DNA from: Bdellovibrio sp.
GTDB lineage: Bacteria; Bdellovibrionota; Bdellovibrionia; Bdellovibrionales; Bdellovibrionaceae
Direction of reading: 5' to 3'
NCBI GenBank assembly: GCA_036676395.1
Contig: JAKFCY010000002.1
Span: 1,152,001-1,216,000, forward strand
Length of the DNA stretch: 64,000 nt
The notes under the pieces are model-generated. The model was given only the letters and a program-made list of their open reading frames with translations, was not told the DNA's origin and did not search any database. The translations under genes were made by a program, and so were the position numbers. Position 1 is the first letter of the stretch; each line of letters begins with the position of its first letter. Positions 28,296-34,220 of the stretch are shown here, piece after piece.

Positions 28296-29009
28296 CTACT
28301 CGGGACAGATCAGTTTGGCTTCTTCGTCAGTGATTTTAATGTCATTGAATTTTTTAAATTTTTTCACTTTTTCGATAACGTGATTATATTCTTTGGTGTC
28401 GTTGCCATCAGTGTTTTTGCGCCAGTAGACTAAGGCTTTATCGTTGGACCAACTGCAGAATTGAATAAGGTTTATCACAGCCGCATAACCAGAAGCGTGC
28501 CAGCCATTCCAACAGTGTCCGTACATCGGCCCTGCGATTTCACCTTTGATGTGCTTGTGAACTTGCGTAAGTAGCGCATATTCGTTTCCGGATTTAAGAG
28601 AGGCTAATTGCAGGTAGTCGAGCTTTTGGTCTTTGCCACAAGTAATGATTTTTTCAGATTCGTCATAGTTGTCTTTATAAAAGTACATCGCTTCTGAAAA
28701 ACCCTGCTTGCAGAGGTTTTCTAGGCCTTCCAAAGGAAGGGGATTTTGGTTGTCGCGTTTTTTATTTTTATTAAATTTATTGTTAGCGCCACCGCGGTAA
28801 TAAATGCCATGAAGAACAGCGCGAAAATTACGAGTGCCGTAAAGTTCAGAATCGCCATTGCCTTTGTTGTCGGTTTGTTTTTTATAGACGTCATCAAGTG
28901 GGAAAAGCTTTTTGTATTTCGCTACTTGATCGCCTAAATTAAAAACCGGCTTGGTGTTGTTCGCCCAAGCCGGTAGAGAAAGAATCAGTATTAAGATAAA
29001 TCGCATCAT
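28296..29009 (-). CDS. Exported cysteine phosphatase-like protein (PTP/DSP fold, PFA-DSP/Siw14-like) with a CX5A loop
   Basis: NFRAVLHGIYYRGG and PMYGHCWNGWHASG resemble NF..V..GIYRSG and HCxxGxHRTG; signal peptide ending AWA. Confidence 0.65.
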   Translation of the reverse strand: MMRFILILILSLPAWANNTKPVFNLGDQVAKYKKLFPLDDVYKKQTDNKGNGDSELYGTRNFRAVLHGIYYRGGANNKFNKNKKRDNQNPLPLEGLENLCKQGFSEAMYFYKDNYDESEKIITCGKDQKLDYLQLASLKSGNEYALLTQVHKHIKGEIAGPMYGHCWNGWHASGYAAVINLIQFCSWSNDKALVYWRKNTDGNDTKEYNHVIEKVKKFKKFNDIKITDEEAKLICPE

Positions 29010-29031
29010 ACTGCGATTATATCAGTTTAAA

Positions 29032-30462
29032 TTACTGTTGTGCAGCTTGAATCACAGCGCGGCAGTCAGGAACTGCTTGGCCAGTGAAAGCTGAATCAAG
29101 GTCTAGATCAAGTGATAATTGACCTGCTTTACAAGTGTTAACTAACACGTTTACTGAGTGAGCCACGTTGGTTTTAAATGTATTGATATCAGTAGCCGTC
29201 ATACCAGTTTCTAATTTGAAGAAAGCTTGGCCTTCAGCTGTATTGATTAGCTTGTAAAGTTTTAAAAGTTTTTCGAAAGTCTCTGGGTTAAAGTGACGTA
29301 CACCTTCTAATAATTTACCGTTTTTAATATGGTTTTCTTTAGCTACGCCACAGTCGTTATCTTTCATCATCATCTTTTTAAGCATCAATGTACCAGCTGG
29401 GTAAGTTTTGCCAGCAGCGATGTCTTTTTTAGATAACGAATCTAATTTATCAACTTTAGTTTTGCCAGTAGTTGCATCTTTAACGATAGCGTAAGCTTCC
29501 ATTGTGTAATGTAAGTTACCTAAACGATCTTGTTGGCTTAACATAGTATCTAATAAAATCATATCAGCTACGTTTTGCATTTTTAATACTTCTTGAGCGT
29601 TATTTTGATTAAAGTTAGTTAAACCCTGACCGCTTAATGAAGCACCGTTAGCTAAACGAGCGTAAGTAGTATTTTTGGCTTTAAAGTTCGCAGTACGAGT
29701 TGGTTGATCAGAACCACCGTTAAACATTTCAGAGTATTTTTCTTCTTTTGAAGGATTCATTTGTAAAGCACCGAAGCTGTATTTGTAATCGTCAGTGAAA
29801 ATGTTTGTAGCTTTGGCGTGAGCAGAACCTTTAGTAAGGATACCTAAGATACCTTCCCAAGTTTGTTGGATTAAAGGTTTAACTGGAGCTGGTTTACCTT
29901 TAGCCGCAGCAGCTTTAACTAGTTTTTGATATTCAGCATCTAAGATGTTCCAAGTTTTAGTACCGATCGCTTTGTGAGTTGCAGCATCAACAGTTCTTAA
30001 AACTGCAGGGGGAACTTGATTGATATTACCTAAGAAACGAGAAACTTGATAATAAGATAATAATGACGGAGTGTAGCTGCAGCTAGTACTTTGTTTGTAC
30101 TTAGCTAATTTTTTAAATGTGTTGTCATCAGATGCACCACCTGGCTTTGGTACGAAACAGTTTTTAGCTTCGATTTGAGCGGCAGTCATGCCTTCTTCGA
30201 TTTTGAAAAATTCAACACCTGGGTTTGTACTTTCTATTTTACCGCAAACAGCTACGTTTTTAGAAATATTCATCGCGCAAAGATCTCTTTCGCGCTCTAA
30301 GTCTTTTTTAGAAAATTTTGAGCCTTCAAGACGGTTAGGGATAAAGCAAAGCTCACCGCGGTCTAAAGCGATTTTTTCAGCGCCACGACCTGGCATATTC
30401 GGCGTTAATGTAGCGTGTGCTAACATCGGGGCTAATAAGACCATAACTACTGTTTTTTTCAT
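29032..30462 (-). CDS. Exported atypical kinase-like protein (Fam20C/four-jointed/CotH-like fold)
   Basis: AKYK, YQVSRFLG...VPPAVLR, FGAL, DMILLDTMLSQQDR and MKDNDCG occur in the same order as the Fam20C core motifs; signal peptide ending AHA; eight Cys. Confidence 0.65.
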   Translation of the reverse strand: MKKTVVMVLLAPMLAHATLTPNMPGRGAEKIALDRGELCFIPNRLEGSKFSKKDLERERDLCAMNISKNVAVCGKIESTNPGVEFFKIEEGMTAAQIEAKNCFVPKPGGASDDNTFKKLAKYKQSTSCSYTPSLLSYYQVSRFLGNINQVPPAVLRTVDAATHKAIGTKTWNILDAEYQKLVKAAAAKGKPAPVKPLIQQTWEGILGILTKGSAHAKATNIFTDDYKYSFGALQMNPSKEEKYSEMFNGGSDQPTRTANFKAKNTTYARLANGASLSGQGLTNFNQNNAQEVLKMQNVADMILLDTMLSQQDRLGNLHYTMEAYAIVKDATTGKTKVDKLDSLSKKDIAAGKTYPAGTLMLKKMMMKDNDCGVAKENHIKNGKLLEGVRHFNPETFEKLLKLYKLINTAEGQAFFKLETGMTATDINTFKTNVAHSVNVLVNTCKAGQLSLDLDLDSAFTGQAVPDCRAVIQAAQQ

Positions 30463-33218: not shown

Positions 33219-33341
33219 ACCAGTTGGTATAATCAAGAAATGTACCGCCACGTCTGGTTATAGCTGGATTATATTGATTCTGAGTGTCTCATTTCGAGAG
33301 ACCGAGCGTGAAAAGGCACAGATTGATATGACACTGTCTAA

Positions 33342-34220
33342 TTATTTTTCACCCTCGTAACGGTAGCGTTCTAAGAACCACTCGACCCGGGTACGCATTT
33401 TGTCTGGAAATTCCACAAGGGTTGCATCAGTGATTTCGCCTTTAATAATTTGGGCCGCGTAGGCATCGCAAACTTCACCCAGCTTTTTATTCAGCTTTTT
33501 AAGAAAGTCGATTTGTTCATTATCGCCTTCATTTTTGTCGGCATTAAGTCTGACTTCGCCGCTCTTAAGTTCATGCTGAATTTGCATAAAACGTAAGATG
33601 TCGCGCATGTTCTTACGAACATCATGAAGCTCATCGACTTCCATTGTTCGTTTAGCCATAATTAAGCGTGTGTCTTTGATGATAGCTTCAAAGTAGGCTT
33701 TAACTGATTTTCTAGAAGCGGGCTTTATGTCTTTAAGTAAAGCTTCAAATTCAACATCTTTAAATTTTTTAATAAGTTTTTTTGCAGCTTGTTGCGCCTG
33801 GGCGCTTTCGCCGATATTTACCATGTCTTTAAGGTGACCAAAATCACGAACGAATTTGGCAAATTTATCAGGGCTTGCGTGGTCTTTACTTGAAGTCTGA
33901 AATACCGAACGTAAAAACGAAGTGTCTTGGCGAAATCTATTGATCTTCACTTTTTGCTCAGGCGTGATAACAGCTAGCCCTGTATAGCGAATGGTCATAA
34001 GAGTTGTTTTAAGATCTACTAAGTCAGCGTTAGCTAATAAGTTATAGTGAGCGGTCTCGAGAAAGCGCGCAGATTCTTTTTTGCCATTTAACGTGATAAT
34101 GAATTCTTTAACTTCATACTCTTTCGGCTCAAATAGGTTTCTGCAAGCTAATGCCTGAGCATTTACCTTAAGAGATACCAGCGTTAAAATCAGAATGAAA
34201 AAAGTTTTACATACGTTCAT
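33342..34220 (-). CDS. Exported CHAD-like domain protein
   Basis: Helical and basic; INRFRQ...LRSVF, FGHLKD, ELHDVRKNMRDILRF and LKKLNKKLGEVCD match the two CHAD half-repeats; signal peptide. Confidence 0.68.
   Translation of the reverse strand: MNVCKTFFILILTLVSLKVNAQALACRNLFEPKEYEVKEFIITLNGKKESARFLETAHYNLLANADLVDLKTTLMTIRYTGLAVITPEQKVKINRFRQDTSFLRSVFQTSSKDHASPDKFAKFVRDFGHLKDMVNIGESAQAQQAAKKLIKKFKDVEFEALLKDIKPASRKSVKAYFEAIIKDTRLIMAKRTMEVDELHDVRKNMRDILRFMQIQHELKSGEVRLNADKNEGDNEQIDFLKKLNKKLGEVCDAYAAQIIKGEITDATLVEFPDKMRTRVEWFLERYRYEGEK

Follow-up and report, generated by a model that had tools for sequence, protein, structure and literature searches.

A minus-strand gene cluster between infC and rplT of a Bdellovibrio genome encodes predicted exported proteins with VTC-like and Fam20-like folds

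We analyzed five genes, here called A to E, on the minus strand of a 64,000-nucleotide stretch of Bdellovibrio sp. DNA (GenBank assembly GCA_036676395.1, contig JAKFCY010000002.1, positions 1,152,001 to 1,216,000; hereafter the window). Gene A (33342-34220) encodes 292 residues, gene B (31953-33218) 421 residues from an ATG start or 432 residues if translation begins at a GTG at 33251, genes C (30520-31950) and D (29032-30462) 476 residues each, and gene E (28296-29009) 237 residues. The cluster is flanked by infC (26509-27084) and rplT (35255-35602), both on the plus strand. An initial annotation of the sequence had described five co-oriented genes separated by 123, 2, 57 and 22 nucleotides, which the list of open reading frames (ORFs) bore out; with the GTG start of B the A-B gap is reduced to 90 nucleotides. 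The G+C content of the window is uniform (0.36-0.43), and there is therefore no sign that the A-E stretch is foreign. The same annotation saw motifs of phosphate-chain proteins in four of the genes, and here the outcome was mixed. It holds at the level of the fold for C, a predicted VTC-like protein of the triphosphate tunnel metalloenzyme (TTM) type, and for D, a predicted Fam20-like kinase; it holds partly for E, a putative relative of cysteine phosphatases, and for A it is a lead only.

The N-termini of all five proteins look like Sec signal peptides, as had been proposed. Each has a basic residue, 10-14 hydrophobic residues and small residues at positions -3 and -1, judged by eye against the -3/-1 rule, by which small residues stand ahead of the cleavage site of a signal peptide, and the predicted cleavage-site triplets are VNA, AYG, ANA, AHA and AWA. 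Hydrophobic N-termini are retained by the homologs in the family alignments, and all five mature proteins are basic, with isoelectric points (pI) of 8.75-9.26. Eight cysteines are invariant in 27 sequences of the D family and five in 25 sequences of the E family, which fits a location outside the cytoplasm. To our knowledge, the characterised VTC, CYTH and CHAD proteins face the cytoplasm, and the locus would place folds of the VTC/CYTH/CHAD and Fam20 types into a bacterial export pathway. None of the five proteins had a credible match in Pfam or NCBIfam, and the same was true of three neighbouring proteins. Single-sequence and profile searches of the PDB sequences gave nothing useful for A, C and D, and for E weak matches to TpbA via its profile.

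The AlphaFold2 model of C (predicted local distance difference test, pLDDT, 90.5) fits, by its structural matches, the closed eight-stranded beta-tunnel with a C-terminal plug helix by which TTM proteins are recognised. In a Foldseek search with this model ranks 1-12 were all Vtc4, Vtc2 or the VTC complex (E about 1e-5, probability 0.93-1.0). This was further supported by VIA, a structure search that is independent of Foldseek and aligned all 48,161 representative chains. Vtc2 (Z 13.6, 228 residues, 3.5 Å) and Vtc4 (Z 13.4, 239 residues, 4.1 Å) came first, followed by VTC complexes (12.0-13.1) and CYTH proteins (8.9-10.8), among them 2gfg (10.8), PH1012 (10.3), ygiF (9.6) and human ThTPase (9.4). 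All of ranks 1-13 were TTM proteins (Z 8.9-13.6), covering model residues from about 58 to 471. That C is a TTM-fold protein with VTC as its nearest relative is solid as a prediction, and the VTC assignment made initially stands on both structure searches.

A VTC-type set of residues is also present in C. An alignment of 32 sequences (the window copy, seven loci and 24 of 43 database representatives) gave the invariant blocks R70-x-E72-x-K74, R171-x-R173-x-Y175, E247-x-K249, Y349-x-R351, T363-x-D365, E405-x-K407 and K459. In 16 canonical VTC proteins the invariant or near-invariant blocks are R15-x-E17-x-K19, R81-x-R83-x-Y85, E96-x-K98, Y158-x-R160, T174-x-D176, E218-x-K220 and K245, and by eye all seven are collinear between the two families. 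The invariant, alternating Arg, Lys and Glu residues of C sit on predicted strands; E405 (strand 402-409), invariant in all 32 sequences, is likened to Glu-169 of AtTTM3 by motif only. The parts of PMC4641920 that we consulted describe a TTM tunnel lined by charged residues, one of them an invariant Glu that binds metal and sits on a late strand. As told there, hydrolytic TTMs use an acidic patch of four glutamates to hold a water-activating second metal, and Vtc4p has basic residues at this place, leading the growing chain away (PMC4641920, Martinez et al.). C has R70 and K407 at two acidic-patch positions, placed by motif, as bacterial VTC proteins do, and we therefore lean to VTC-type chain chemistry over hydrolysis. 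As a guess, we put VTC-type chemistry on nucleoside triphosphate (NTP) or polyphosphate (polyP) chains a little ahead of two-metal hydrolysis of the CYTH kind, with a smaller remainder for other reactions.

The closest known counterpart of C is thus the tunnel domain of yeast Vtc4/Vtc2 (3g3q, 3g3r, 3g3o; PF09359), matched over 228-239 residues, with key residues collinear with those of bacterial VTC proteins. There are clear differences. The Vtc4 domain faces the cytosol, as stated in the consulted part of PMC4641920, whereas C starts with a signal peptide; in this phylum, canonical VTC proteins lack such a peptide and begin directly with the tunnel. C is about twice as long as the VTC domain, with inserted strands and a helical hairpin, and it has no significant sequence link to VTC and lacks both an SPX domain and a Vtc1-type membrane channel partner. 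The family is rare. Whole-genome searches found C homologs in 10 of 61 relatives, all within the window's own genus, and the order's other families, represented by 24 genomes, had none; a 10-sequence profile matched 43 proteins among 1.84 billion cluster representatives. C-type domains were also seen within giant proteins, P0146 (4053 residues, domain at 587-1047), P0147 (3195 residues, 1731-2141) and P0154 (1424 residues, 1102-1382), which in addition hold radical SAM, methyltransferase or cytidylyltransferase-like domains.

For D, the structural match is to kinases. Foldseek with the AlphaFold2 model (pLDDT 91.6) placed zebrafish and human Fam20C, Fam20A, hydra Fam20 and the Golgi casein kinase of C. 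elegans at the top (E 2e-5 to 5e-4, probability 1.0), with PI4KIIalpha after the Fam20 proteins (E about 1e-2). In VIA the matches to hydra Fam20 and zebrafish Fam20C1 had Z 18.2, 17.8 and 17.0 (278-285 residues), the best being an entry of hydra Fam20 solved with sugar (5xoo, 282 residues, 4.1 Å). Fam20C gave 16.3-17.0, C. elegans Fam20 15.2-15.6, the PI4KII proteins 14.1-15.1 and Fam20A 13.6-14.0, with CtkA (11.7), HipT (10.5) and CotH (10.2) lower. A Fam20/PI4KII-type kinase fold for D is therefore solid as a prediction, and the Fam20-like assignment of the initial annotation is upheld by both searches.

The D alignment comprised 27 of the 120 sequences listed. Besides the eight cysteines, K121, K123, E240, D305, Q310, D312, R313, G315, N316, K367, D368, N369, D370, C371 and G372 are invariant in it. 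K121/K123, E240, D312-x-x-x-N316 and D368-N369-D370 lie at the expected secondary-structure positions of the model; by motif, these residues may be the counterparts of the ATP-binding Lys, the catalytic Asp/Asn loop and the metal-binding Asp of Fam20. The conserved residues are consistent with an active site. D resembles the Fam20 kinases (the xylose kinase hydra Fam20/Fam20B, the casein kinase Fam20C and the pseudokinase Fam20A; Z 13.6-18.2 over 264-300 residues) also in its signal peptide and its many conserved cysteines. As judged by sequence, however, D is not a Fam20 family member: identity to the structural matches is 10-15%, no Pfam family was matched at E up to 1 and no PDB sequence match to Fam20 was obtained, and PI4KIIalpha is nearly as close in structure (Z 15.1). 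The family is widespread, with 293 homologs at E up to 1e-3, none of which has a Pfam domain, and with source names that include Bdellovibrio sp. qaytius, other Bdellovibrio, Oligoflexia, Nitrosospira and Pyrinomonadaceae. It was found in 65 of 401 genomes sampled from the phylum and in 37 of 52 of the window's family (f1), and the window's genome carries three copies. A review of Fam20, in its consulted part, treats the family as animal, from sponges to humans, and has the word bacteria once, in the reference list (PMC7948968).

The product of gene E was initially seen as PFA-DSP-like, and this claim survived in part. E has 734 homologs, 24 of which (from 120 listed) were aligned with the window copy. 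The P-loop reads H-C-W-N-G-W-H-A-S-G, with H165, C166, W167, N168, G169, W170, H171 and G174 invariant and A172 and S173 present in at least 90% of the 25 sequences. A relation to Y_phosphatase2 (PF03162) and TpbA is indicated by several comparisons: 11 of the 25 family members matched PF03162 at E up to 1 (best 1.6e-5), a PDB search with the E profile reached TpbA (E 0.12-0.22) in an alignment that paired the two P-loops, and hhalign of E against the genome's own exported PF03162 protein (P-loop HCKHGRDRTG) gave 70% (E 4e-5, 38 columns). E shares the Y-R-G-G and H-C-x-x-G motifs with TpbA, the periplasmic dual-specificity phosphatase of P. aeruginosa (2m3v/4r0s), and with PF03162, and like E the genome's PF03162 protein is predicted to be exported. 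The window's own E had no PF03162 match and lies below the Pfam cut-off. On these sequence comparisons we hold, with moderate confidence, that E belongs to the cysteine-phosphatase superfamily by descent.

What did not stand is the catalytic signature. TpbA and PF03162 have the Arg of the defining C-x5-R motif, whereas E keeps the cysteine (C166) and has Ala (or Ser) at the Arg position in all 25 aligned sequences, with Trp and His filling the loop; the Arg of the TpbA loop HCKHGNNRTG falls on the Ala of E. The invariant arginines of the family (R60, R63, R72 and R85) are all outside the P-loop. E may be regarded as a natural experiment, in which a cysteine-phosphatase fold stays strongly conserved after giving up the P-loop arginine. 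A complex prediction of D with E scored 0.00 with a mark of 0.32, which speaks neither for nor against binding. A second E-type gene was seen elsewhere in the genome (C2:1971643-1972167; L071:1498-2100, minus strand), encoding 200 residues with the same HCWNGWHASG loop. It lies 18 nucleotides upstream of a gene (C2:1970854-1971621) for a 255-residue protein without a known family that carries a C-x-x-L-F motif described below, so that the partners of E-type proteins are of more than one kind.

For A, the case is one of association. A has 45 homologs, the named ones all from Pseudobdellovibrio or of the B. qaytius type, and the mature protein is of a helical type and basic (pI about 9.15, 50 Lys and Arg against 43 Asp and Glu). 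In an Atlas feature search, clusters named 'CHAD domain-containing protein' came top (0.93, 201 of 256 features), at a recognition value of 2221, which is below the level reached by 91 of 100 known families. In one genome (G031) a natural fusion of 729 residues consists of a C homolog followed by an A-type domain, and residues 74-284 of A align with residues 523-725 of the fusion at 29% identity (E 5e-28). E. coli ygiF, a cytoplasmic short-chain polyphosphatase with a TTM and a C-terminal CHAD domain (5a61), has the same domain order, and its TTM domain is among the matches of C (Z 9.6). According to the consulted parts of PMC6537752, CHAD has a basic surface and consists of a pseudo-twofold symmetric pair of four-helix bundles, many CHAD proteins bear an N-terminal TTM domain, CHAD raises the activity of ygiF, and stand-alone CHAD genes typically lie beside polyP enzymes. 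A shows this type of association, both in the C-A fusion and in the TTM-type gene that follows A-B in 10 of 20 genomes (see below). The CHAD-like nature of A is a lead, which the fusion strengthens.

B had no match in Pfam or NCBIfam and no usable match in the Atlas. An alignment of six sequences showed a signal peptide, a C-x-x-L-F motif and, near the middle, a hydrophobic segment resembling a membrane helix.

The motif in B is shared by A and C. In all three it reads C-x-x-(L/I/V)-F, with Cys and Phe invariant, and lies a few residues past the predicted cleavage site; in B and in C this is the only cysteine of the mature protein. Genome-wide, 'C..LF' at residues 15-45 occurred in 11 of 1283 ORFs that passed a crude signal-peptide filter, as compared to 1-3 in three control windows. 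Seven further tagged proteins, which have no mutual similarity, are encoded on contig C2 at 308842-310056, 546939-547775, 754423-756060, 804826-806184, 1742670-1743272, 1883301-1884800 and 1970854-1971621. One tagged protein matches GGDEF (E 2.3e-16) and another Gln_deamidase_2 (E 1.2e-5; the score is 25.9 bits and the cut-off 25), and CotH/HipA_2 and DUF2252 were matched weakly. We also considered a lipoprotein cysteine and rejected it, as Q, M, L, E or R often precedes the Cys, which does not suit a lipobox. The motif may be a sorting or coupling tag and may so mark a sorting route for the exported enzymes of this lineage.

The arrangement of the five genes was surveyed in 52 genomes of the window's genus, the window's own included. 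A was present in 20, B in 28 (weaker matches counted), C in 15, D in 37 and E in 21, and the full cluster, in the same order and between infC and rplT, in seven (G000, G018, G036, G016, G209, G342 and G399). B came directly after A in 17 of the 20 genomes with A, and D lay no more than 5 kb from A-B in 10 of the 20. C followed A-B in eight genomes, and in two more (G005 and G020) its place was taken by a tagged protein of 445-446 residues, C' (L072:6141-7478 and L073:4585-5919, respectively; the copies are 61% identical), which brings the total of TTM-type genes at this place to 10. C' was matched weakly to the C profile by hhalign (71.7%, E 3.5e-5), and its similarity to C lies at the level of the motif blocks K-I-R-x-R-S-Y, E-x-K-F-K, Y-E-R, Q-M-T-F-D and E-F-K; C' probably represents another exported TTM family that has diverged deeply. 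In G005 and G020 C' is followed by another gene (for a DUF2252 protein or a polysaccharide deacetylase) and then by D, and the deacetylase gene of G020 (E 7.2e-33) adjoins D. The slot after A-B is thus variable and holds C, C', a 385-residue tagged protein, a DUF2252 protein or a polysaccharide deacetylase; the 385-residue protein of G011 gave 0.5% in hhalign against C. In G012 the A-B-C trio was found at a second chromosomal site, beside ABC-F and Mrp genes, and G294 has A-B-D without C or E.

D and E form a pair of their own. Of the 30 best D loci in the phylum, 18 have E next to D, and these come from three genera: genus g23 (11 of 15, 10 of them divergent and one, L053, on the same strand), g105 (two of two, divergent) and the window's genus (five of nine, in tandem), with none of four in family f31. 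The expectation that homologs of the genes co-occur in other genomes was thereby confirmed, for the whole cluster as well as for the D-E pair.

It had also been stated that bacterial VTC genes often neighbour CotH kinases, and this was found for the D family too. In all six g23 genomes sampled a canonical VTC gene without a signal peptide lies directly beside D, in convergent orientation, with E on the other side of D in five of the six. The row is conserved (L078-L083; genomes G190, G180, G154, G175, G185 and G127) and consists of genes for a small Cys protein, a signal-peptide protein of about 386 residues, canonical VTC and the convergent D-type kinase. A D-type kinase is thus found beside a VTC-type gene in two genera, with very different tunnel genes. 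We know of no VTC-kinase neighbourhood with a tested function. A VTC-CotH neighbourhood is listed in a gene table for C. perfringens (NELoc-2), in the consulted part of PMC2879425. Our locus is like the bacterial VTC-DUF4956-CotH sets in that a kinase of the CotH/Fam20/HipA group stands beside a VTC-type gene, as D does beside C and beside VTC in g23. It is unlike them in that the tunnel enzyme C is itself predicted to be exported and is highly divergent, in that D is nearer to Fam20 (Z 18) than to CotH (Z 10.2), and in that the CHAD-like A, B and the phosphatase-like E are added.

The same genome has a canonical VTC cluster about 235 kb from A-E (C2:1417000-1422000, L061). It encodes a DUF4956 membrane protein (E 4.7e-12), a VTC protein without a signal peptide (E 8e-47), a 594-residue protein whose resemblance to the HlyD type is weak (27.9 bits, short of the cut-off) and a 391-residue signal-peptide protein. 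This cluster could be a machine that makes and exports polyP.

Taken together, the results suggest that A-E encode Sec-exported proteins that handle phosphoanhydride chains and phosphoryl transfer outside the cytoplasm of the producer, in two separable modules; we judge the chances of this reading to be about even. In the first module, A-B-C, the VTC-like tunnel enzyme C would bind a triphosphate or polyP chain in its basic tunnel, and A, as a basic helical CHAD-like partner, would hold the polymer beside C, as the CHAD domain does in E. coli ygiF, with B as the constant companion of A, possibly membrane-anchored. In the second, D-E, a disulfide-stabilised Fam20-type D would phosphorylate an extracytoplasmic glycan or protein, and E, a cysteine-phosphatase fold with an Arg-less P-loop, would reverse, edit or regulate the mark set by D. 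Nucleotides or polyP would come from outside the producer's own cytoplasm, either as prey contents or as exported polyP. The analysis shows the gene structure, the predicted folds of C and D, the family relation of E, the C-A fusion and the links between neighbouring genes; the actual export, the binding of polyP by A, all the enzyme activities and substrates and any flow of phosphate between the modules we infer. The repeated links between C and A, A and B, A-B and a TTM gene, a TTM gene and D, D and E, and D and VTC make a functional connection likelier than a chance pile-up.

Several results weigh against this reading. The structures of C and D are predictions, and their residue matches to Vtc4 and Fam20 were made by motif. 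By sequence, C fails membership in VTC (PF09359): a Pfam scan at E up to 1 found no family besides one chance match, in hhalign the VTC protein of the same genome scored 1.3% and a profile built from 16 of the 23 VTC places found scored 18.7%, and the profile search of 1.84 billion proteins did not bridge from C to the abundant VTC/CYTH families. A six-frame PF09359 scan of the genome returned the canonical gene (C2:1417426-1418139) only, and not C. The CHAD assignment of A, which has the natural C-A fusion in its favour as a link to a TTM, was not significant in any sequence test and in this differs from ygiF, as does C with Arg and Lys at the two motif-placed acidic-patch positions. With a limit of E 1 A had no match to Pfam CHAD (PF05235), and all six frames of the genome, scanned with PF05235 to E 10, gave 0 matches. 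An hhalign comparison of A against nine canonical CHAD proteins gave a probability of 5.4%, the A profile found no CHAD match in the PDB, and no internal two-fold repeat was detected, the score of A being reached by 37 of 500 shuffles. As the E family has no P-loop Arg, it may be inactive or do other chemistry.

Gene order has its own weak points. C stands alone in four fetched loci, and G031 has the C-A fusion and no D. Since the genomes compared are close kin, the adjacency counts overstate the number of independent events. A-B-C and D-E also occur apart, and we therefore speak of two separable modules and no obligatory five-part machine, in departure from the single module proposed in the initial annotation. 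Finally, we know of no periplasmic supply of ATP or NTP, which leaves a polymerase and a kinase without an obvious donor. This donor problem outside the cytoplasm gives room to two other readings, one of prey effectors and one of polyP as fuel.

In the first of these, which we regard as doubtful and still worth serious attention, the proteins are independent secreted effectors against prey and form no pathway, and the tag marks exported, nucleotide-needing enzymes that act inside another cell. C would drain or convert the NTPs or polyP of the prey, D would place phosphates on targets in the prey, and a variable cargo would share A and B as helpers or for its delivery. The tag common to A, B and C, its enrichment in the genome, the seven dissimilar further tagged proteins and the variable slot after A-B all point this way, as do the closest named relatives; the source names on close homologs are Bdellovibrio sp. 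qaytius and Pseudobdellovibrio sp. (metagenome-assembled genomes), and B. qaytius is described as an epibiotic predator in the consulted part of 10.1101/506055. The predatory context of the locus is suggested by these names of close homologs only. D and E, however, have no tag, further members of their families are on record under the names Nitrosospira, Pyrinomonadaceae and Gammaproteobacteria, and the enrichment was obtained with a crude filter. These carriers are not known to us as predators. There is also no known secretion route into prey for such a tag, and the C-A fusion together with the repeated pairing of D with TTM or VTC genes in two genera favours cooperation between the proteins.

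The second, that extracytoplasmic phosphorylation is run on polyP and not on cytoplasmic ATP, is unlikely in our estimate. Here polyP would come from prey or be exported by the genome's canonical VTC-DUF4956-membrane-fusion cluster, A would capture it, C would run NTP/polyP chemistry in either direction, D would use polyP or regenerated NTP on targets in the envelope or the prey, and E would be the counterpart of D. The pairing of D with VTC in two genera would then reflect a relation between donor and user.

A further possibility, which appears very unlikely to us, is phosphorylation of an envelope glycan, with D as a Fam20B-like glycan kinase acting on the producer's own polymer, E removing or editing the phosphate, and the TTM-like and CHAD-like genes serving unrelated phosphate scavenging. 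It draws on the best structural match of D, hydra Fam20, including the sugar-bound entry 5xoo; according to the consulted part of PMC7948968, the Fam20 proteins of hydra and sponge phosphorylate xylose and have no activity as protein kinases, and the glycan kinase is regarded as the ancestral form. D-E pairs are also widespread independently of A-B-C, and a polysaccharide deacetylase gene lies beside D in G020. The fold, however, does not separate a glycan from a protein substrate, as Fam20C follows within about 1-2 units of the hydra match (Z 17.0, 16.4 and 16.3). The position of D beside VTC-type genes in two genera would be left unexplained, and the donor problem outside the cytoplasm persists.

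The least probable reading is that a variable infC-rplT island has gathered unrelated secreted-protein genes, whose order is explained by shared ancestry: the island content does vary (all five genes, A-B-D in G294, A-B-C'-x-D in G005 and G020, and small flanking genes at 27154-28242 that are missing in G036 and G016), and the full clusters are all from one sub-clade (66-98% protein identity), but the A-B-C trio is found again at another place on the chromosome, G031 carries a fusion of C with A, D-E are adjacent in three genera and two orientations, a different, canonical VTC gene lies beside D in g23, and C and C', diverged almost past recognition, are both kept after A-B.

If the parts of the cluster cooperate, the locus bears on how phosphorylation can take place in an ATP-free compartment and on the role of the bacterial VTC-kinase neighbourhoods. 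Irrespective of this, three families without a Pfam or NCBIfam model, D (at least 293 members), E (at least 734) and the rare C, gain a testable identity. In the literature that we searched on bacterial secreted kinases of the Fam20/CotH type, on VTC-CotH-polyP, on CHAD with a signal peptide, on polyP and prey in Bdellovibrio and on Fam20 in Bdellovibrio, no such system was described, and a comparative genomics paper (PMC11656739) had none of the six terms looked for.

Some minor features of the region were noted as well. A terminator-like hairpin, by match to the consensus only, lies on the minus strand at 34308-34334, between a small gene (34366-34764) and gene A; it has an 11-bp stem with six G-C pairs and a T run. 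Just upstream of the start of A, at 34229-34258 on the same strand, is a weak promoter-like site (TTGAAA-18-TATATT, matching at 10 of 12 positions); such sites are no commoner in the region than in shuffles (17 as compared to 19.5). From A to E the minus strand has no terminator-like site of comparable strength, and one weak 5-bp site lies inside E (28715-28702). Soil and groundwater metagenome runs contain the stretch or most of it. Short contigs from one soil RNA library map to A, B, C, D and a downstream small gene, some without mismatch, which is a weak sign of transcription because carry-over of DNA is possible; among the matches listed none falls over E or several other stretches, and this has no bearing on expression or operon structure.

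Small genes with signal peptides border the cluster on both sides, 34366-34764 upstream and 27538-28242 and 27154-27477 downstream, and match no Pfam or NCBIfam family. The upstream one encodes 132 residues with six cysteines in the mature part and is syntenic in G018, G036, G016, G294, G005 and G020, and the two downstream ones are present in G018 and absent from G036 and G016. Just past rplT, at 35702-39890 of the window, lies a set of genes named by eye as mevalonate-pathway genes, with ORFs like isopentenyl-diphosphate isomerase and HMG-CoA reductase and kinase- and decarboxylase-like ORFs.

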